Shown: piece after piece, positions 1-43,253 of the stretch
Position numbering within the stretch: position 1 is the stretch's first letter
Layout: each line of letters begins with the position of its first letter
Notes under the pieces: generated by a model
Databases searched by the model: none
Told to the model about the DNA's origin: nothing
What the model saw: only the letters and a program-made list of their open reading frames with translations
Assembly (NCBI RefSeq): GCF_001677475.2
Contig: NZ_CP015229.1
Length of the DNA: 64,000 bases
Reading direction: 5' to 3' (one strand)
Source: Escherichia coli
GTDB taxonomy: Bacteria > Pseudomonadota > Gammaproteobacteria > Enterobacterales > Enterobacteriaceae
Program-made: the position numbers and the translations under genes

Positions 1-276
1 ATGGTCGTCAATCTGGTGTTCGATAACCATCCCTTCACCTACGCTGGCAAGATGGCGAACATAAGGATGCGGTCGGTAAGCCGGAGCTGGCGCAGGAGCC
101 ACATAGACGGTTTGCGGCACAGTCGCGACGCTGACCGCTTGTGGAACGCTGATTGAATCAGGAACCACAACCACTTTGTATCCACTCGGCACATCGACGG
201 TGACATTTTGCGCCATCGCCACACCAGTAAAGCCCATTAAAAGCGCGCCCAACAGTAGACAATTTTTCATAATCAT
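1..276 (-). CDS. ybjH: YbjH-like small secreted protein; 3' end runs off the window start
   Basis: Minus-strand open frame from ATG at 274-276 to position 1 with no stop; N-terminus MIMKNCLLLGALLMGFTGVAMAQ looks like a signal peptide; sits upstream of ybjI as in K-12. Confidence 0.7.
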   Translation of the reverse strand, partial: MIMKNCLLLGALLMGFTGVAMAQNVTVDVPSGYKVVVVPDSISVPQAVSVATVPQTVYVAPAPAPAYRPHPYVRHLASVGEGMVIEHQIDDH

Positions 277-361
277 TTCGCCTGAAATAATGCAGCGGGT
301 AAATTTCCGCGAATTATGCAGCCTTCATTCAGGCATTGTGTTGCCGGGCGTGCTGCCGTTT

Positions 362-1177
362 TTATTGGTTAAATGGCGCTTCGTGTTTAAGAACTTTATC
401 GATCACATCCAGTACGCCTTCACGGTTATTGGAGCCTGCCCGGTATTTTGCCGCTGCGACGACCGCGCTGCCGGCATTTTCCATTGCAAAACTAAAGCCT
501 GCCTGACGCAGCATCTCAATATCGTTACCGCCATCGCCAAAGACCACCACTTCGCTGTCGTCTATTCCCCATAATTTCTGCAGTTGGCGAAGGCCATTGG
601 CTTTATGTACGCCGGGGATAATCAGATCGATGCTGCCGTTGCCGGTGTGGACCGGCACCATAATATCGCCGATGGCCTCATGTAATGCTTTTTGTACTTG
701 TGGAATCAGTTCATCGGAAAGATTCAGACCAAACTTAAAGAAGATATCTTCTAAGTTGTCAAAGTTATCGACGTATTCCAGACGGTGATAATACATTTCC
801 GCCACCGTTTTCATGGCATCGTCATATTTTTTGAGGGTATAGGCGCTATTTTTTCCGCAGGCAATAATTTCCACTTCCGGGCGCGTCAGCAAATGTTCCA
901 CGACAGTAGCAAACGCATCCTTCGACAGCTCGCCATTAAAAACATCTTTGCCTTCGCTCACTACCCAGCCGCCGTTTTCAGCCACAAAGGCTATTTCATT
1001 AGCAATTTCCGGAAAGAAAGAGATCAACTGATAATATTGATTCCCGCTGGCGACCACAAAGCGAATGCCTTGTGCTTTCATTTGCTGATACTGAGCCATA
1101 AACCGCTCACGGTTATAGGTTTTTTGATCGCTTAAGAAAGTACCATCCATGTCTACCGCAATTAATTTAATGCTCAT
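362..1177 (-). CDS. ybjI: HAD-superfamily phosphatase
   Basis: ORF 362..1180; ATG at 1175-1177 gives 271 aa; N-terminus [14 protein letters not shown] carries the HAD DxDGT motif; start overlaps the ybjJ stop by 1 bp. Confidence 0.85.
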   Translation of the reverse strand: MSIKLIAVDMDGTFLSDQKTYNRERFMAQYQQMKAQGIRFVVASGNQYYQLISFFPEIANEIAFVAENGGWVVSEGKDVFNGELSKDAFATVVEHLLTRPEVEIIACGKNSAYTLKKYDDAMKTVAEMYYHRLEYVDNFDNLEDIFFKFGLNLSDELIPQVQKALHEAIGDIMVPVHTGNGSIDLIIPGVHKANGLRQLQKLWGIDDSEVVVFGDGGNDIEMLRQAGFSFAMENAGSAVVAAAKYRAGSNNREGVLDVIDKVLKHEAPFNQ

Positions 1178-2385
1178 CAATTATTCTCCATCGCCGTCTG
1201 CGTTTTGGTATCGGGTTTGGCGACGGCTTTCGCGACAATAGCCGCGAGAATAACCAGCGCCAGTACAACCAGCATTGCACTACGTAGTCCATAATGTTCG
1301 CCGAGATAGCCCAGCAGCGGCGGCCCGACGAGGAAAGCCAGATAACCGGTCGTTGCTACTACGCTGACGCGGGTCGGTGCATCGGGGCCGGTATCGCTGG
1401 CGGCAGAAATGGTCAGCGGGAAGCCCAGCGAAGCACCCAGTCCCCAAAGTACAACAGACACCCCTGCGACCCAGGCGCTATCGACAAAAATAATCAGCCC
1501 AATACCCAACGCTCCCATTAGTGCACTGGCCCGAACCACGGCAACGCGACTGTAACGGTCGATGAACCAACCGCCGGTAAAGCGTCCAACAGTCATCCCC
1601 AGGGTAAAACCGGCATAAATCAGCGAGCCGGAAGTAGGGCTAAAACCGTGACCGTCAACCATTAATAAGGGTAACCAGTCGTTGGCAGAACCTTCGGCAA
1701 AGGCCATCGCCAGCACTACAACACCAATCAGCAGCAACTGGATATCGCGATAAAAAGGTACGCCTTTTTCACCATGCTGGGTGCCATCGGCAGCATTTTT
1801 GCCCGTACCGTCAGGGATTGCCTGAATGGCGATATAAATAGGCGCGATGCCTACCAGCGCCGCCAATAAAATGTGCACCGTTGCCGGAACGCCAAAGGCC
1901 GTCAGTGCCATCCCGATACCAGCGCCTGCCAGCGTGCCCAGGCTATAAAAACCGTGCATCATCGGCAAAACCGTCTTATTCATTTCTCGCTCAACGGCAG
2001 CACCTTCAACGTTTATCGCCACTTCCGCAGAACCAAAACTTGCCCCAAAGACGCCGAGACCAACGGCAAAGAGCAGGGGCGATGTCAGCCAGAGTGCCAG
2101 ACTTAATATCATCATCCCGATCAATGCGCAGGACATCGTGACCAGGATGACATTACGCGTCCCAAAGCGTTTCACTAACCACGCCGAGCAGAGAATACCG
2201 CTCATTGAACCGATCGACAGACCAAAGAGGACTCCGCCCATTTCAGCGATCGAAACAGAAAGAATATCGCGGATAGCAGGCGTACGGGTTGCCCAGGACG
2301 CCATTAACAGGCCCGGCAAAAAGAAGAACATAAACAGCGCCCAGGTTCGGCGTTTCAATGCATTACGTGAAGAATTTAAGGTCAT
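1177..2385 (-). CDS. ybjJ: MFS-type inner membrane transporter
   Basis: 402-aa ORF, highly hydrophobic multi-helix protein; recalled as E. coli YbjJ. Confidence 0.85.
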
Positions 2386-2428
2386 AGATCACGTCAAAAT
2401 AAGAAGAGGGAAGACAACATTAGCAAGG

Positions 2429-2448
2429 TTGTGTACATTTGTACACAA
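2429..2448. promoter_or_regulatory. Perfect inverted repeat TTGTGTACAtTTGTACACAA in the ybjJ-rcdA divergent intergenic; candidate TetR-family (RcdA) operator
   Basis: Palindrome read directly; lies 20-40 bp upstream of the rcdA start. Confidence 0.5.
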
Positions 2449-2468
2449 TTGCAGAGAGAGGAAATGAC

Positions 2469-3005
2469 ATGCGTCGCGCTAACGATCCGCAACGGCGAGA
2501 AAAAATTATCCAGGCCACGCTGGAGGCGGTGAAACTTTATGGAATACATGCTGTTACGCACCGCAAAATTGCTACCCTTGCCGGGGTACCGTTGGGATCG
2601 ATGACCTACTATTTTTCAGGAATTGATGAGTTGTTGCTGGAGGCGTTCAGCAGTTTTACTGAGATCATGTCCCGGCAATATCAGGCATTTTTTAGCGATG
2701 TTAGTGATGCACAGGGCGCATGCCAGGCTATCACCGATATGATATACAGCTCACAGGTTGCAACGCCGGATAACATGGAGCTGATGTACCAGCTCTACGC
2801 GCTGGCTAGCCGAAAACCGCTATTAAAAACGGTAATGCAAAACTGGATGCAGCGCAGTCAGCAAACGCTCGAACAATGGTTTGAACCCGGAACTGCCCGC
2901 GCGCTTGATGCGTTTATTGAGGGGATGACGCTGCATTTTGTCACCGACCGTAAGCCGCTATCGCGCGAGGAGATTTTGAGGATAGTTGAGAGGGTTGCAG
3001 GGTAG
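2469..3005 (+). CDS. rcdA: TetR-family transcriptional regulator RcdA (YbjK)
   Basis: ORF 2439..3005 trimmed to ATG at 2469 ([21 protein letters not shown]...), 178 aa; N-terminal HTH of TetR type. Confidence 0.85.
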
Positions 3006-3024
3006 TAGATAAATTTTAGGCAAC

Positions 3025-3103
3025 AAAAAACCCACCAACCTTGAACCGAAATGGCGGGGTTGATGGGCTCCACAAAATGGGGACATCAAAGAAAAGCAGT
3101 GGC
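3025..3103 (-). ncRNA. rybB: sigmaE-dependent small RNA RybB
   Basis: Reverse complement reads GCCACTGCTTTTCTTTGATGTCCCCATTTTGTGGAGCCCATCAACCCCGCCATTTCGGTTCAAGGTTGGTGGGTTTTTT, ending in a GC hairpin plus U-run; lies in the ybjK-ybjL intergenic where rybB is known to sit. Confidence 0.85.
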
Positions 3104-3179
3104 ACTAATTAAGACTGATGCCCTGCGGAAAAGTTCTGCGGTTGTGCAAAAAAATTTCATTTTCAGGGCAACTTCAGTT

Positions 3180-4865
3180 TTATCCTAATCCAGGCCATAC
3201 CATGACGATGATTGTCCCTGCCAGCGTCAGCAGGACGTTGGCGATTGCGTAGGTGCCCGCATAGCCCAGCGCCGGGATGTTACTGCGAGCTGTATCACTG
3301 ATGATCTCCATTGCCGGCGCGCAGGTGCGTGCGCCCATCATTGCGCCAAACAACAGTGCGCGGTTCATTCTCAATACATAAGCACCGAACAAGAAACAGA
3401 TAACCACGGGCACCAGACTGACAATCAATCCGGCAATTAACATCTGACCGCCAATCGCGCCCAGGCCGTTATTAATACCGCTACCGGCGCTCAGACCAAC
3501 GCCTGCCATAAACACCATCAAGCCGAACTCTTTCACCATGCTTAATGCACCTTGCGGAATGTAACCGAAGGTCGGGTGGTTAGCACGCATAAAGCCCAGC
3601 ATAATTCCGGCGAATAACAACCCGGCAGCGTTCCCCATGCCGAAACTGAATGTGCTGAACTGGAAGGTGATCATCCCGATCATCAGCCCAATAACAAAGA
3701 AGGCGCAGAATGCCAGCAAATCAGTGACCTGGCTGTGAATCGAGATAAAGCCGATGCGATCGGCGATGGTTTTTACGCGGCGGGCATCGCCGCTGACTTG
3801 TAATACGTCACCTTTGTTAAGCACGACGTTGTCATCTATCGGCATCTCAATCTGGCTACGAATGACGCGGTTAAGGAAGCAACCGTGATCGGTCAACTTC
3901 AGTTGTGCGAGACGTTTGCCAACGGCGTTATGGTTTTTAACGACCACTTCTTCAGTGACGATACGCATGTCGAGAAGGTCACGATCGAAAACTTCTTTAC
4001 CGTTACGGAAGCTGGGATCGAGTCGGGCATGGGCGTCGGGATAGCCTACCAACGCTATTTCATCGCCCATTTGTAGCACGGCATCACCGTCTGGATTTGC
4101 CAGAATCCCGTTACGTCGAATACGTTCAATGTAGCAGCCGGTTTGTCGATAAATACCCAGCTCACGCAGATTTTTGCCGTCGGTCCAGGCCACCAGCTCC
4201 GGGCCGACGCGGTAGGCGCGGATCACCGGTAAATAAACCTTACGGTTGGCATCAGTGTCCAGGCCACGTTCGCGGGCGATTTGCTGGGCGCTGGTCTGTA
4301 AGTCCTGATGCTGCAATTTCGGCAAGTAACGCGCACCAACAATCAAACTCACCAGACCGATTAAATAGGTTAAGGCATACCCGAGGCTCAGATTATCCAG
4401 CGCCAGTGAGAGCTGTCTGCTTTCCATGCCGGAATGACGCAGTGTATCGCCAGCACCGACCAGAACCGGTGTCGACGTCATAGAGCCTGCTAACATACCG
4501 GCCGTCAGGCCAATATCCCAGCCAAACAGCTTACCTAACCCTAAGGCGATGACCAGCGCACTGCCAACCATCACCAGTGCTAACATTAGGTAATTTTTCC
4601 CATCGCGAAAAAAAATGGAAAAAAAGTTCGGTCCGGCTTCGACCCCGACGCAGAAAATAAACAGCATAAAGCCAAGATTAAGCGCGTCGGTGTTAATGCT
4701 GAAATGTTGTTGGCCTAATAACAGCGATACGACTAAAACGCCAATGGAATTACCCAGTTGGATCGAACCAAGTCGTAATTTCCCGAGACATAGCCCAAGC
4801 GCGAGGACCACAAATAATAACAGAATGTAATTCCCATTTAACAATTCGGCGACGTTTATATTCAC
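3180..4865 (-). CDS. ybjL: Putative transporter YbjL (AAE family with TrkA-C domains)
   Basis: 561-aa ORF; membrane domains flanking a central soluble region; N-terminus [20 protein letters not shown]. Confidence 0.85.
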
Positions 4866-5134
4866 GGAGGCTAACTTCTTGTTTACTAGTAAGCTGTTGA
4901 AAGAAATGGTAATTTACGATAATGTTTTTTACCAGAATTCAGGGCGCAGATTCATTCAGCGCACCTAAACGATAGTAAAGTAACAATATATTTTACTAGT
5001 GTAATCACATTAGGTATCAACGGCTATATGAATTGCGTTGGCCTATATTAGCATGGAATGCGAAGCGGCTTTATCTTACTGAACGCCACACTGGCGAAAA
5101 ATGTGTTCGATAGACGCAGTGTCAGGAGGAACGA

Positions 5135-5494
5135 GTGAAACATAAACAACGTTGGGCGGGGGCAATCTGCTGTTTTGTCCTCTTCATTGTGGTGTGCCTT
5201 TTTCTGGCGACGCACATGAAAGGCGCTTTTCGGGCTGCCGGGCATCCTGAAATCGGCTTGCTGTTTTTCATTCTTCCTGGAGCAGTTGCCAGCTTCTTTT
5301 CACAGCGTAGAGAAGTCCTGAAACCTCTGTTTGGCGCAATGCTGGCGGCACCCTGTTCAATGCTTATTATGCGGCTGTTTTTTTCACCGACGCGCTCATT
5401 CTGGCAAGAGCTGGCATGGTTATTAAGTGCGGTGTTCTGGTGTGCGCTGGGGGCACTGTGTTTCTTATTTATCAGTAGTTTGTTTAAACCATAG
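5135..5494 (+). CDS. ybjM: Inner membrane protein YbjM
   Basis: ORF from GTG at 5135 (MKHKQRWAGAICCFVLFIVV...), hydrophobic; exact start uncertain. Confidence 0.7.
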   Translation: MKHKQRWAGAICCFVLFIVVCLFLATHMKGAFRAAGHPEIGLLFFILPGAVASFFSQRREVLKPLFGAMLAAPCSMLIMRLFFSPTRSFWQELAWLLSAVFWCALGALCFLFISSLFKP

Positions 5495-5541
5495 CACAGA
5501 AAAAATCAATAAAGCCCTCAACGCGAGGGCTTGTCAGACGA

Positions 5542-5799
5542 TCAGGCGTCCAGATTCTCTTTCACCCATGCAGCAAAATCGGTATAGCCGCCGATATGTT
5601 GCTGATCGACAAAAATCTGCGGCACGGTTTCTACGGGTTTACCTGCCTTTTGTTGTAGATCTTCTTTAGTGATCCCTTCCGCACGAATATCAACATACTG
5701 ATACTGAAAATCATCGCGTTCATTGCTCAATTTCTCAGCCAGATCTTTTGCACGCACACAGTAAGGGCAACCCGGACGACCAAAAATAACGGTTTGCAT
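5542..5799 (-). CDS. grxA: Glutaredoxin 1
   Basis: ORF trimmed to MQTVIFGRPGCPYCVRAKDLAEKL (CPYC active site), 85 aa. Confidence 0.9.
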   Translation of the reverse strand: MQTVIFGRPGCPYCVRAKDLAEKLSNERDDFQYQYVDIRAEGITKEDLQQKAGKPVETVPQIFVDQQHIGGYTDFAAWVKENLDA

Positions 5800-5958
5800 T
5801 ATTTCTCTCCTCATAGATTTATGCCTGTAATGATCACGCTAAAATGTATTCGCTGAAAGTAGGTTTAACCTGTTGCATTAATTGCTAAAAGCTATAACTG
5901 TTAAACACAATACAGTGAAAAGTTTTAGACTGAAGGCTCACTTTGCAGAGGGAAGCGT

Positions 5959-6246
5959 ATGCGCGCGATCGGTAAATTGCCTAAAAGCGTGTTGATACTG
6001 GAATTTATCGGAATGATGTTGCTGGCGGTGGCGCTGCTGTCGGTAAGCGGCTCCCAGTCGCTGCCTGAGCCATTTTCTCGGCCAGAAGTGCAGATTCTGA
6101 TGATTTTTCTCGGTGTTTTGCTCATGCTTCCCGCTGCGGTGGTGGTTATTCTTCAGGTGGCAAAACGTCTTGCCCCACAGCTGATGAACCGTCCACCGCA
6201 ATATTCACGTTCAGAAAGAGAAAAAGATAATGACGCCAACCATTGA
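5959..6246 (+). CDS. ybjC: Small membrane protein YbjC
   Basis: 95-aa ORF with two hydrophobic segments; overlaps the nfsA start by 17 bp (operon ybjC-nfsA-rimK-ybjN). Confidence 0.8.
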   Translation: MRAIGKLPKSVLILEFIGMMLLAVALLSVSGSQSLPEPFSRPEVQILMIFLGVLLMLPAAVVVILQVAKRLAPQLMNRPPQYSRSEREKDNDANH

Positions 6247-6952
6247 ACTTATTTGTGGCCATCGCTCCATTCGCCATTTCACTGATGAACCCATTTCCGA
6301 CGCGCAGCGTGAGGCGATTATTAACAGCGCCCGTGCGACGTCCAGTTCCAGTTTTTTGCAGTGCAGTAGCATTATTCGCATTACCGACAAAGCGTTACGT
6401 GAAGAGCTGGTGACGCTGACCGGCGGGCAAAAACACGTAGCGCAAGCGGCGGAGTTCTGGGTGTTCTGTGCCGACTTTAACCGCCATTTACAGATCTGTC
6501 CGGATGCTCAGCTCGGCCTGGCGGAACAACTGTTGCTCGGTGTCGTTGATACGGCAATGATGGCGCAGAATGCATTAACCGCAGCGGAATCGCTGGGATT
6601 GGGCGGGGTATATATCGGCGGCCTGCGCAATAATATTGAAGCGGTGACGAAACTGCTGAAATTACCGCAGCATGTTCTGCCGCTGTTTGGGCTGTGCCTT
6701 GGCTGGCCTGCGGATAATCCGGATCTCAAGCCGCGTTTACCGGCCTCCATTTTGGTGCATGAAAACAGCTATCAACCGCTGGATAAAGACGCACTGGCGC
6801 AGTATGACGAGCAACTGGCGGAATATTACCTCACCCGTGGCAGCAATAATCGCCGGGATACCTGGAGCGATCATATCCGCCGAACAATCATTAAAGAAAG
6901 CCGCCCATTTATTCTGGATTATTTGCACAAACAGGGTTGGGCGACGCGCTAA
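6230..6952 (+). CDS. nfsA: Oxygen-insensitive NADPH nitroreductase A
   Basis: 240-aa ORF, MTPTIELICGHRSIRHFTDEPISDAQREAIINSARA, nitroreductase fold. Confidence 0.9.
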   Translation: MTPTIELICGHRSIRHFTDEPISDAQREAIINSARATSSSSFLQCSSIIRITDKALREELVTLTGGQKHVAQAAEFWVFCADFNRHLQICPDAQLGLAEQLLLGVVDTAMMAQNALTAAESLGLGGVYIGGLRNNIEAVTKLLKLPQHVLPLFGLCLGWPADNPDLKPRLPASILVHENSYQPLDKDALAQYDEQLAEYYLTRGSNNRRDTWSDHIRRTIIKESRPFILDYLHKQGWATR

Positions 6953-7012
6953 AACCGCCACGTCGATGTATGATACGCGGGCTTTTGACCAGGTCTGACA
7001 GAGAGGTGCAGG

Positions 7013-7915
7013 GTGAAAATTGCCATATTGTCCCGGGATGGAACGCTCTATTCGTGTAAGCGGCTGCGTGAAGCCGCTATACAGCGCGGTCACCTGGTTG
7101 AAATTCTTGATCCGCTTTCTTGCTACATGAACATAAATCCTGCGGCGTCTTCTATTCACTACAAAGGCCGCAAGTTACTCCATTTTGACGCAGTGATCCC
7201 GCGTATTGGCACCGCCATTACCTTTTATGGGACGGCGGCACTGCGCCAGTTCGAAATGCTGGGCAGCTATCCGCTCAATGAGTCGGTCGCCATTGCCCGG
7301 GCGCGTGACAAATTGCGTTCCATGCAACTGCTGGCGCGTCAGGGCATCGACCTGCCTGTCACGGGCATTGCGCATTCGCCGGATGATACCAGCGATTTAA
7401 TCGACATGGTCGGTGGTGCGCCGCTGGTGGTCAAGCTGGTTGAAGGCACGCAGGGAATTGGCGTCGTGCTGGCGGAGACGCGTCAGGCGGCCGAAAGCGT
7501 GATTGACGCTTTCCGCGGTCTGAACGCGCATATTCTGGTGCAGGAATATATCAAAGAGGCGCAAGGGTGCGATATCCGCTGTCTGGTTGTTGGCGATGAA
7601 GTGGTCGCTGCGATTGAACGGCGGGCGAAAGAGGGCGATTTTCGTTCCAATTTGCATCGTGGCGGCGCGGCAAGCGTCGCCAGTATCACACCACAGGAGC
7701 GTGAAATCGCGATAAAAGCCGCGCGAACGATGGCGCTGGACGTTGCTGGTGTGGATATTCTGCGTGCTAATCGCGGGCCATTGGTGATGGAAGTGAATGC
7801 GTCGCCGGGGCTGGAAGGAATAGAAAAAACCACCGGTATCGACATCGCGGGTAAAATGATCCGCTGGATCGAACGCCACGCTACGACAGAATATTGCCTG
7901 AAAACGGGTGGTTAG
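7013..7915 (+). CDS. rimK: Ribosomal protein S6 glutamate ligase (ATP-grasp)
   Basis: 300-aa ORF from [30 protein letters not shown]. Confidence 0.9.
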
Positions 7916-8002
7916 TCGCAATCACATTACTGATCATGGTTTTGCCTGCGCTTTTTGCGTAAGCTGTGCCGGTCTTTTTATCGAAAGAGGTTGTACAAAA
8001 TT

Positions 8003-8479
8003 ATGACATCGCTGGTCGTTCCTGGTCTGGATACGCTGCGTCAATGGCTCGATGACCTGGGGATGAGTTTTTTTGAATGTGATAACTGTCAGGCTCTGCA
8101 TCTGCCCCATATGCAGAATTTCGACGGTGTCTTTGATGCCAAAATCGATCTGATCGATAACACGATCCTGTTTTCTGCCATGGCGGAAGTCCGACCTTCA
8201 GCCGTATTGCCGCTGGCGGCGGATTTATCTGCTATCAATGCCAGTTCGCTGACCGTGAAAGCATTTCTTGATATGCAGGATGATAATCTGCCAAAGCTGG
8301 TGGTTTGCCAGTCTTTATCCGTTATGCAAGGCGTAACCTATGAGCAGTTTGCATGGTTCGTGCGTCAGAGCGAAGAGCAGATTTCGATGGTCATTCTTGA
8401 AGCTAATGCCCATCAACTGCTGTTACCGACTGACGATGAAGGGCAAAACAACGTTACCGAAAACTATTTCCTCCACTGA
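8003..8479 (+). CDS. ybjN: YbjN-family protein
   Basis: ORF 7955..8479 trimmed to ATG 8003 (MTSLVVPGLDTLRQWLDD...), 158 aa. Confidence 0.85.
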   Translation: MTSLVVPGLDTLRQWLDDLGMSFFECDNCQALHLPHMQNFDGVFDAKIDLIDNTILFSAMAEVRPSAVLPLAADLSAINASSLTVKAFLDMQDDNLPKLVVCQSLSVMQGVTYEQFAWFVRQSEEQISMVILEANAHQLLLPTDDEGQNNVTENYFLH

Positions 8480-8829
8480 TAACTCCTTTCGAGTACGCAG
8501 TCGCTGCCGCAGTGACTGCGTGCTGCAAAATTATCTGCTGTTTTTAACCTTTTCTTAAAGATTATTTCACTTCTCTTGTGCCGATTTGGCTTTATCACAT
8601 AGAGCAAATACGCATAAAAATTTGTTAAATACCGTTTTTTAATCCGAGCTATAGTCTCAAACCCTGGCTAAAGTTATTCTTGCGATGCTTTTATATAGCG
8701 AGCAGTGCTGGCCGGGAGAGAGTTCTCTTTTCTTACACCGCGCCGATAAAAAATATGCACGTTTATTGCATATCTTTCAGTGTGACAACTTTTGTTCGTT
8801 TGTTAACGAACTTTCAGAAGGAAAGAGAT

Positions 8830-9942
8830 ATGACCGCCTTAAATAAAAAATGGCTATCGGGTCTGGTTGCGGGTGCTCTGATGGCCGTCTCTGTCGGCAC
8901 GCTCGCGGCTGAACAAAAAACACTCCACATTTATAACTGGTCTGATTATATCGCCCCGGACACGGTGGCCAATTTTGAAAAAGAAACCGGTATTAAAGTC
9001 GTCTACGATGTTTTCGACTCTAACGAAGTACTGGAAGGCAAATTAATGGCGGGTAGCACCGGCTTTGACCTGGTGGTGCCGTCAGCAAGCTTTCTTGAAC
9101 GCCAGTTGACTGCGGGAGTTTTCCAGCCGCTGGATAAAAGCAAATTGCCGGAGTGGAAGAATCTCGACCCGGAACTGCTGAAGTTGGTTGCCAAACACGA
9201 CCCGGATAATAAATTTGCTATGCCCTATATGTGGGCGACGACCGGGATTGGCTATAACGTCGATAAAGTTAAAGCGGTGCTGGGCGAAAACGCGCCCGTC
9301 GATAGCTGGGACTTGATCCTCAAGCCTGAAAATCTGGAAAAACTAAAAAGTTGCGGTGTCTCTTTCCTCGATGCGCCAGAAGAAGTTTTTGCTACCGTGC
9401 TGAATTATCTCGGCAAAGATCCCAACAGCACTAAAGCGGATGATTACACCGGACCGGCTACCGATCTGCTGTTAAAGCTGCGCCCGAACATTCGTTATTT
9501 CCATTCATCTCAATACATTAACGACCTGGCAAACGGCGATATCTGCGTCGCTATTGGCTGGGCGGGTGATGTCTGGCAGGCGTCAAACCGCGCGAAGGAA
9601 GCGAAGAATGGCGTTAATGTCTCGTTCTCGATTCCGAAAGAAGGGGCGATGGCGTTCTTTGATGTCTTCGCCATGCCTGCGGATGCCAAAAATAAAGACG
9701 AAGCCTATCAGTTCCTGAATTACCTGCTGCGCCCGGATGTGGTGGCGCATATTTCCGACCATGTGTTCTATGCCAACGCGAACAAAGAAGCTACGCCGCT
9801 GGTAAGCGCGGAAGTGCGTGATAATCCAGGGATTTATCCTCCGGCGGACGTTCGTGCGAAGTTGTTCACTCTGAAAGTGCAGGATCCAAAAATAGACCGT
9901 GTGCGCACCCGCGCGTGGACCAAAGTGAAGAGCGGAAAATAA
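8830..9942 (+). CDS. potF: Putrescine ABC transporter periplasmic binding protein
   Basis: ORF trimmed to MTALNKKWLSGLVAGALMAVSVGTLAAEQ (signal peptide), 370 aa. Confidence 0.9.
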   Translation: MTALNKKWLSGLVAGALMAVSVGTLAAEQKTLHIYNWSDYIAPDTVANFEKETGIKVVYDVFDSNEVLEGKLMAGSTGFDLVVPSASFLERQLTAGVFQPLDKSKLPEWKNLDPELLKLVAKHDPDNKFAMPYMWATTGIGYNVDKVKAVLGENAPVDSWDLILKPENLEKLKSCGVSFLDAPEEVFATVLNYLGKDPNSTKADDYTGPATDLLLKLRPNIRYFHSSQYINDLANGDICVAIGWAGDVWQASNRAKEAKNGVNVSFSIPKEGAMAFFDVFAMPADAKNKDEAYQFLNYLLRPDVVAHISDHVFYANANKEATPLVSAEVRDNPGIYPPADVRAKLFTLKVQDPKIDRVRTRAWTKVKSGK

Positions 9943-10036
9943 TCCGCAGTCGTAGATGCCGGACGGGCGCACCACACCCGCCGGCAATTCGCACCATTAT
10001 GGTGCGCTTGCACACATTCAATGCCGGAGAGCAGCC

Positions 10037-11170
10037 GTGAATGACGCTATCCCTCGCCCGCAGGCGAAAACCCGTAAGGCGCTGACGCCGCTATTAGAAA
10101 TCCGCAACCTCACCAAATCCTACGATGGTCAACATGCGGTGGATGATGTCAGCCTGACCATCTACAAAGGTGAAATCTTCGCGCTGCTGGGCGCATCCGG
10201 CTGTGGCAAGTCCACGCTGCTGCGTATGCTGGCAGGTTTCGAACAACCTTCTGTCGGGCAGATTATGCTCGATGGCGTCGATTTGTCACAGGTACCGCCT
10301 TACCTGCGCCCCATCAATATGATGTTTCAGTCTTACGCGCTGTTTCCGCATATGACCGTGGAACAGAATATCGCTTTTGGCCTGAAACAGGACAAATTGC
10401 CGAAAGCGGAAATTGCCAGCCGGGTCAATGAGATGCTCGGGCTGGTGCATATGCAGGAGTTCGCCAAACGCAAACCGCATCAGCTTTCCGGCGGTCAGCG
10501 ACAGCGTGTGGCACTGGCCCGAAGCCTTGCCAAGCGCCCGAAACTATTACTGCTCGATGAGCCGATGGGCGCACTGGATAAAAAGCTGCGTGACCGGATG
10601 CAGCTTGAAGTGGTGGATATTCTGGAGCGTGTCGGTGTGACCTGCGTGATGGTCACCCACGATCAGGAAGAGGCGATGACCATGGCGGGGCGCATCGCCA
10701 TTATGAATCGTGGGAAATTTGTCCAGATTGGCGAACCGGAAGAGATCTATGAGCATCCGACCACCCGCTACAGCGCCGAATTTATTGGCTCGGTTAATGT
10801 CTTTGAAGGTGTACTCAAAGAGCGTCAGGAAGATGGTCTGGTGCTTTATTCGCCGGGGCTGGTGCATCCACTGAAAGTCGATGTAGATGCTTCGGTGGTC
10901 GATAACGTGCCGGTGCATGTGGCGCTTCGCCCGGAAAAAATCATGCTTTGCGATCAACCGCCTGCTGACGGCTACAATTTTGCGATGGGGGAGGTGATAC
11001 ACATTGCCTATCTCGGCGATCTTTCGGTGTATCACGTTCGTCTGAAAAGTGGGCAGATGATTAGCGCCCAGCTACAAAACGCCCATCGTCATCGTAAAGG
11101 GTTACCGACCTGGGGCGATGAAGTGCGTTTGTGCTGGGAAGTGGACAGCTGTGTGGTGCTGACGGTTTAA
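10037..11170 (+). CDS. potG: Putrescine ABC transporter ATPase
   Basis: GTG start (MNDAIPRPQAKTRK...), Walker A GASGCGKST, signature LSGGQRQR, 377 aa. Confidence 0.9.
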   Translation: MNDAIPRPQAKTRKALTPLLEIRNLTKSYDGQHAVDDVSLTIYKGEIFALLGASGCGKSTLLRMLAGFEQPSVGQIMLDGVDLSQVPPYLRPINMMFQSYALFPHMTVEQNIAFGLKQDKLPKAEIASRVNEMLGLVHMQEFAKRKPHQLSGGQRQRVALARSLAKRPKLLLLDEPMGALDKKLRDRMQLEVVDILERVGVTCVMVTHDQEEAMTMAGRIAIMNRGKFVQIGEPEEIYEHPTTRYSAEFIGSVNVFEGVLKERQEDGLVLYSPGLVHPLKVDVDASVVDNVPVHVALRPEKIMLCDQPPADGYNFAMGEVIHIAYLGDLSVYHVRLKSGQMISAQLQNAHRHRKGLPTWGDEVRLCWEVDSCVVLTV

Positions 11171-11179
11171 GGAGCAAAG

Positions 11180-43034: not shown

Positions 43035-43122
43035 GTTCACTGCCGTACAGGCAGCTTAGAAATTCACAGGTAACATACTCCACCCGCCCACCATGTTCAC
43101 TGCCGTACAGACAGATAAAATG
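43035..43122 (+). CRISPR. Orphan type I-F (Ypest-type) CRISPR mini-array: 2 repeats, 1 spacer, no cas genes
   Basis: Repeat 1 GTTCACTGCCGTACAGGCAGCTTAGAAA (43035-43062), 32-bp spacer TTCACAGGTAACATACTCCACCCGCCCACCAT, degenerate repeat 2 GTTCACTGCCGTACAGACAGATAAAATG (43095-43122); AT-rich leader-like region upstream. Confidence 0.8.
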
Positions 43123-43165: not shown

Positions 43166-43253
43166 TGGCGGTGAGGGGGGGATTCGAACCCCCGATACGT
43201 TGCCGTATACACACTTTCCAGGCGTGCTCCTTCAGCCACTCGGACACCTCACC
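43166..43253 (-). tRNA. serW: tRNA-Ser (anticodon GGA)
   Basis: Reverse complement GGTGAGGTGTCCGAGTGGCTGAAGGAGCACGCCTGGAAAGTGTGTATACGGCAACGTATCGGGGGTTCGAATCCCCCCCTCACCGCCA: long variable arm, GGA anticodon, 3' CCA. Confidence 0.92.

Follow-up and report, generated by a model that had tools for sequence, protein, structure and literature searches.

The rybB small RNA gene in an Escherichia coli genome and its overlap with a P2-like prophage attachment site

The question raised by this locus is whether the minus strand of the rcdA-ybjL intergenic region encodes the small RNA RybB and, if it does, whether the gene is intact. The original prediction, made from the letters of a 64,000-nucleotide stretch of E. 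coli DNA (contig NZ_CP015229.1; the whole stretch is called the window here), placed a near-exact copy of RybB with its intrinsic terminator in this region, noted sigma-E-like promoter elements upstream, and remarked that the gene is easily missed. We compared the locus with Rfam models, with the K-12 gene, with complete E. coli genomes and with other Enterobacterales. The features that are discussed below are collected in Table 1.

Identity and genomic setting of the small RNA gene

Read on the minus strand from position 3103 to 3025, the window gives GCCACTGCTTTTCTTTGATGTCCCCATTTTGTGGAGCCCATCAACCCCGCCATTTCGGTTCAAGGTTGGTGGGTTTTTT. A permissive Rfam scan of window positions 1-8000 returned RF00110 (RybB) as the sole credible match (3100-3022, minus strand; model positions 1-79 of 79; 104.1 bits; E = 3.1e-21; not truncated), and a scan of the whole window at gathering thresholds gave 104.1 bits for this family again, against a curated gathering score of 40. 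The Rfam frame is shifted by 3 nt relative to 3025-3103 because the first model position falls 3 nt into the RNA and the last one 3 nt beyond its annotated end. In pairwise alignment, the K-12 MG1655 ncRNA rybB (b4417; NC_000913 887979-888057, between rcdA and ybjL) fell exactly onto window 3025-3103, with 78 of 79 bases identical. The Rfam score together with this exact mapping excludes chance as the source of the match. A search with the RybB model and an alignment to K-12 rybB were the two checks proposed with the original prediction; both came out in its favour, as its coordinates coincide with the K-12 annotation and the near-exact match is broken by one substitution, at 3035.

The predicted location between rcdA and ybjL was also right. 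The intergenic region spans 3006-3179, and rybB lies inside it on the ybjL strand, with the same synteny as in K-12. Of 5426 complete E. coli genomes, 5422 matched a 401-bp query around rybB, and the genes annotated at the match were ybjL and rcdA. PGAP-annotated E. coli records carry only these two genes there and no rybB feature, so it is fair to call the gene easily missed; the K-12 record does have rybB.

Table 1. Features of the rybB locus, in window coordinates
Feature	Position	Strand	Basis or remark
rybB, 79-nt RybB small RNA	3025..3103	-	+1 G at 3103, 3' end in U-tract at ~3025; Rfam and K-12 alignment
-35 element GAACTT, sigma-E-type promoter	3131..3136	-	identical to K-12; extended form AGAACTTTT at 3137-3129
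-10 element GTCTTA, sigma-E-type promoter	3110..3115	-	identical to K-12
5' seed, RNA nt 1-16, GCCACUGCUUUUCUUU, target-pairing region	3088..3103	-	identical to K-12; pairing role from literature
Terminator hairpin, 12-bp stem (RNA nt 35-46 with 64-75), 17-nt loop with 3-bp inner helix	3029..3069	-	Rfam structure and ViennaRNA
U-tract UUUUUU, expected Hfq-binding 3' end	3025..3030	-	sequence; Hfq binding expected from literature
Single base of the RNA that differs from K-12, A to G at RNA nt 69, U-A to U-G wobble	3035	-	pairwise alignment
Empty site corresponding to the 26-nt attB core used by P2-like (Felsduovirus) prophages	3010..3035	-	overlaps last 11 nt of rybB and 15 nt downstream
rcdA (ybjK), convergent downstream neighbour	2469..3005	+	context
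ybjL, upstream neighbour, same strand as rybB	3180..4865	-	context
Mechanical ORF, 43 aa	2958-3089	-	six-frame list
Mechanical ORF, 71 aa	2858-3073	-	six-frame list
Mechanical ORF, 45 aa	3051-3188	+	six-frame list

Two other candidates near the gene were set aside. A plus-strand sigma-70-like match at 2986-3015 (TTGAGA/TAAATT, 9 of 12 positions) lies over the end of rcdA, and about 0.4 such matches are expected by chance. A match to the UCA1 lncRNA at 4507-4585 is noise: it lies inside ybjL and scored 21 bits (E = 0.11) against a gathering score of 80.

Elsewhere in the window, two further Rfam families scored above their gathering scores: STnc130 at 57852-57986 (minus strand, 140.1 bits) and naRNA4/CssrE, a REP-derived nucleoid-associated RNA, at 15620-15700 (plus strand, 78.5 bits). 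Two type I-F-like CRISPR repeats (GTTCACTGCCGTACAGGCAG...) lie 60 bp apart at 43035-43122 with one spacer between them and adjoin tRNA-Ser(GGA) at 43166-43253 (minus strand); one copy scored 50.1 bits for Rfam CRISPR-DR4. This is presumably the minimal orphan CRISPR array found near serW in E. coli strains without I-F cas genes. Over window positions 1-20000 the best identity among the 5426 complete E. coli genomes was 98.3%, and only 8 records had a best-matching place of at least 99% identity to this part of the window. By this comparison, the source lineage lacks a close representative among complete E. coli assemblies and is no near-clone of a sequenced strain; it may belong to Shigella or to a less common Escherichia lineage.

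Conservation of the promoter, 5' seed and terminator hairpin

Upstream of the gene, GAACTT is followed by a 15-nt gap, GTCTTA, 6 nt and then the +1 G, and the promoter region as a whole (3104-3179) is identical to K-12. To place these elements in a wider frame, 120 loci, of which 116 were distinct, were gathered from species-representative genomes by a 20-nt 5' pattern and anchored on +1. GAACTT was present at -33 to -28 in 114 of the 116 distinct Enterobacterales loci and GTCnnA at -12 to -7 in every one of them, most often as GTCATA (52 loci), GTCTTA (32, the window included) or GTCTGA (24); a T-rich tract at about -50 to -45 was moderately conserved in the same set. The sigma-E consensus has been given as GGAACTTTT for the -35 element and GTCAAA for the -10 element (Papenfort et al. 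2006, PMC1804206). GTCTTA departs from that -10 consensus at 2 positions, yet K-12 has this very hexamer. Experiments have shown that the rybB promoter is strictly sigma-E-dependent, with activity at background level in a delta-rpoE strain, and have also shown the decay of omp mRNAs (PMC1804206). At the level of motifs, a correctly spaced, putative sigma-E-type promoter thus stands upstream of +1. The GAACTT-like and TCTTA-like elements of the original prediction (TCTTA being 3114-3110) are where it put them; their spacing is as expected, their sequence is that of K-12, and they are conserved across Enterobacterales.

The 5' end of the RNA was the least variable part of the transcript. Its first 25 nt did not vary among 90 distinct Enterobacterales sequences, which represent about 40 genera (among them Escherichia, Salmonella, Klebsiella, Serratia, Yersinia, Proteus, Providencia, Xenorhabdus and Sodalis); the search pattern itself dictated 20 of these 25 positions, and the five that follow (TCCCC) are independent of it. 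The window carries the conserved target-recognition sequence from +1 onward without change (Table 1). Among the genomes searched, Xenorhabdus eapokensis DL20 has two identical rybB copies on different contigs (L097, positions 3318-3405, and L098), and the identity takes in 70 nt of upstream sequence and 110 nt that cover the gene and its downstream flank. These twin copies may reflect either an error of assembly or a true duplication, in which a mobile element might be involved.

In the 3' half, the Rfam consensus structure and the ViennaRNA minimum-energy fold agree on a 12-bp stem, and the U-tract that follows it is nearly invariant in the 90-sequence alignment. Standard pairs filled 99.1% of the stem cells of that alignment, and 7 of the 12 stem pairs showed compensatory changes; for instance, 34 sequences had G-C in place of A-U, and 27 had U-A in place of C-G. 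The stem scored 0.337 for covariation compared to 0.165 ± 0.007 in shuffled alignments, none of 500 shuffles reached 0.337, and sliding the stem partners by 1-3 columns as a control left at most 0.052. The folding z-score was -4.4 for the hairpin alone and -2.09 for the whole 82-nt RNA, a modest value explained by a 5' half that should lack structure. A consensus terminator scan limited to loops of 3-8 nt reported no terminator at 2900-3300; this is not evidence against a terminator, because the RybB loop of 17 nt is beyond the range of the scanner. The locus therefore has a Rho-independent terminator hairpin with its U-tract at the 3' end, and the intrinsic terminator of the original prediction gains support from covariation. 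Within the loop, an inner helix absent from the Rfam consensus structure (GCC/GGU, window 3052-3062, RNA nt 48-50 with 57-59) was paired in 98.5% of cases over the 90 sequences. It varied from G-U to A-U in 15 sequences and from C-G to U-G in 11 or A-U in 2, and its covariation was weaker than that of the stem.

The same alignment bears on whether the conserved sequence might instead be a short protein-coding gene. Overlapping ORFs of 43, 71 and 45 aa do exist in the mechanical six-frame list, but the frame is broken in homologues by indels of 1 and 2 nt (alignment columns 21, 27-28, 50 and 57), and the variation tracks base-pair covariation with no codon periodicity. The two minus-strand ORFs run antisense into rcdA, the plus-strand ORF crosses the promoter, and the covariance-model match accounts fully for the conservation. 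A coding explanation is therefore hardly credible. As the promoter, seed and U-tract match K-12 exactly, we consider it almost certain that window 3025-3103 on the minus strand is a functional orthologue of E. coli rybB. The gene is already known, intact and ordinary, and presents no new biology.

Substitutions at the 3' end and a prophage attachment site

Compared to K-12 RybB, the RNA of the window has the same length, position relative to rcdA and ybjL, seed, sigma-E promoter, U-tract and predicted fold; it differs by A69G at 3035, a U-G wobble in the terminator stem, and past the transcript at 3021, 3020 and 3013. Clustered in this way, the changes could mark a decaying or impaired allele, in which the stem substitution and its downstream companions weaken termination or Hfq binding. 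These 4 substitutions fall within 23 bp, the other 190 aligned bases carry one, and G at 3035 is rare across species: the pair of RNA nt 69 is UG in 4 of 90 sequences, and U-A in K-12 and almost all other species. The U-G still pairs, however, and the predicted hairpin energy is -21.8 kcal/mol compared to -22.4 kcal/mol in K-12, a cost of 0.6 kcal/mol with the same fold. The Rfam score stays at 104 bits, the seed, promoter and U-tract are unaltered, and 3 of the 4 changes fall past the transcript end, where they make the window more similar than K-12 to the cross-genus consensus GTTGCCTGAAAT. Of 5426 complete E. coli genomes, 137 also contain the exact 65-mer of window 2996-3060 and carry the allele, which makes G69 a standing minority allele and no lesion. 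Impairment is accordingly very improbable, and we retain the reading of an intact rybB.

The 3' end of the gene has a second use. A 26-nt segment that overlaps it corresponds to the attB core of P2-like (Felsduovirus) prophages, reading GTGGGTTTTTTGTTGCCTAAAATTTA in the window and ATGGGTTTTTTGTTGCCTGAAATTTA in the phage; relative to the phage sequence, the window has 2 mismatches in 26 positions (3035 and 3017) and K-12 has 4. In about 1200 of 5422 genomes (~22%), the 401-bp match broke at window position ~3010 and resumed elsewhere. We rejected disruption of rybB in these split-match genomes, as the prophage sits downstream and rybB is intact at attL. Strain AST262 illustrates the arrangement, with a ~33-kb P2-like prophage between rybB and rcdA, its ogr end by rybB and its integrase by rcdA. 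The attL and attR junctions of AST262 have the core ATGGGTTTTTTGTTGCCTGAAATTTA in common, rybB is intact at attL, and the attR side carries the phage's own hairpin ACCCATTTACATAAATGGGTTTTTT. The integrase region of this prophage has 95-97% DNA identity to Klebsiella phages KP12 and 4LV2017 and to Escherichia phage vB_EcoM-813R9.

This role of rybB as an attB site is already published, and the site is empty in the window. Felsduovirus prophages inserted in rybB have been described as the sole occupants of hotspot #29 in E. coli (Hochhauser et al., PMC10121019), and island Kpn38RybB has been described in Klebsiella (Hudson et al., PMC4048246). The arrangement resembles the attB sites in other RNA genes (tRNA genes and ssrA), where the phage core overlaps the 3' end of the conserved gene and attL restores that gene intact.

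Sequence conservation does not stop at the end of the transcript. The consensus GTTGCCTGAAAT of the stretch downstream (window 3011-3024) is conserved over many genera, and TTGCCTGAA follows the U-tract directly in 49 of 116 species; K-12 is divergent here (GTTATCTAAAAC) and the window intermediate (GTTGCCTAAAAT). Imprinting by the phage core is one possible cause of this conservation past the rybB 3' end.

Integration at a core that overlaps the 3' end, the split of about a fifth of complete E. coli genomes at that point and the occurrence of TTGCCTGAA beyond the transcript might together suggest that the conservation of the locus comes mainly from the attachment site and not from RNA function. 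The core spans only the last 11 nt of the RNA, however, and a distance of 55 to 125 bp separates it from what is best conserved, namely the sigma-E promoter and the first 25 nt of the RNA. An intact rybB is restored at attL upon integration, as is usual where a phage makes use of an RNA gene that is conserved in its own right. We give this explanation practically no weight: use as an attachment site is an added role of the rybB 3' end rather than a true alternative to conservation of a functional RNA.

A narrower proposal concerns the polymorphisms alone. They may be traces or determinants of P2-like integration instead of neutral drift, such that the differences from the phage core (3035 and 3017) and from K-12 (3021, 3020 and 3013) alter attB use in this lineage, and the conservation of GTTGCCTGAAAT (49 of 116 species) is kept by repeated integration and excision that copies the phage core into the chromosome. 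We regard this proposal as speculative and rather unlikely.

Predicted role in the envelope stress response

Work in K-12 and Salmonella has shown experimentally the sigma-E dependence of RybB, its binding to Hfq and its repression of omp mRNAs (PMC1804206, PMC3333887). The decay of ompD mRNA after polymyxin B is RybB-dependent (PMC3333887), and rybB deletion phenotypes are published (PMC1804206). The same three properties are expected of the gene in the window by virtue of the identity of its promoter, seed and 3' end with K-12. Following the K-12 and Salmonella precedent, the sigma-E promoter would drive synthesis of a ~79-nt, Hfq-dependent RybB during the envelope stress response. Transcription would end at the 3' hairpin and U-tract, which would also supply the Hfq-binding end. 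The single-stranded, conserved 5' end (nt 1-16) would then base-pair with mRNAs of outer-membrane proteins, among them ompC, ompW, ompA and ompD, and this pairing would block their translation and speed their decay. With fewer unfolded porins, the load on outer-membrane protein folding would be relieved, and feedback would damp sigma-E activity. Judging by the K-12 map, we take the known RybB targets to lie outside the 64-kb window.

Comparison with related small RNAs sets the gene firmly within the RybB family. RybB of Salmonella Typhimurium (STM0869-STM0870 intergenic region, PMC1804206) shares the 5' domain, the terminator stem sequence, the synteny and a sigma-E promoter with a GAACTT -35 element; for the sequence comparison, the Salmonella locus was that of S. 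enterica diarizonae. Salmonella differs in its -10 element, GTCATA in place of the GTCTTA found here, and in the loop and downstream bases. MicA and MicL, the other enterobacterial sigma-E small RNAs, likewise have a sigma-E promoter, depend on Hfq and repress envelope protein mRNAs (PMC1804206, PMC4102768), but they are unrelated in sequence and lie at other loci (luxS-gshA, and inside cutC), and nothing in the region matches them.

The overlap with attB is relevant when strain-to-strain differences at the rybB locus are read. Beyond this, the value of the finding is one of annotation completeness only: rybB, a central part of the response to envelope stress under sigma-E, is absent from PGAP-annotated E. 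coli records at a locus where the gene itself is present.
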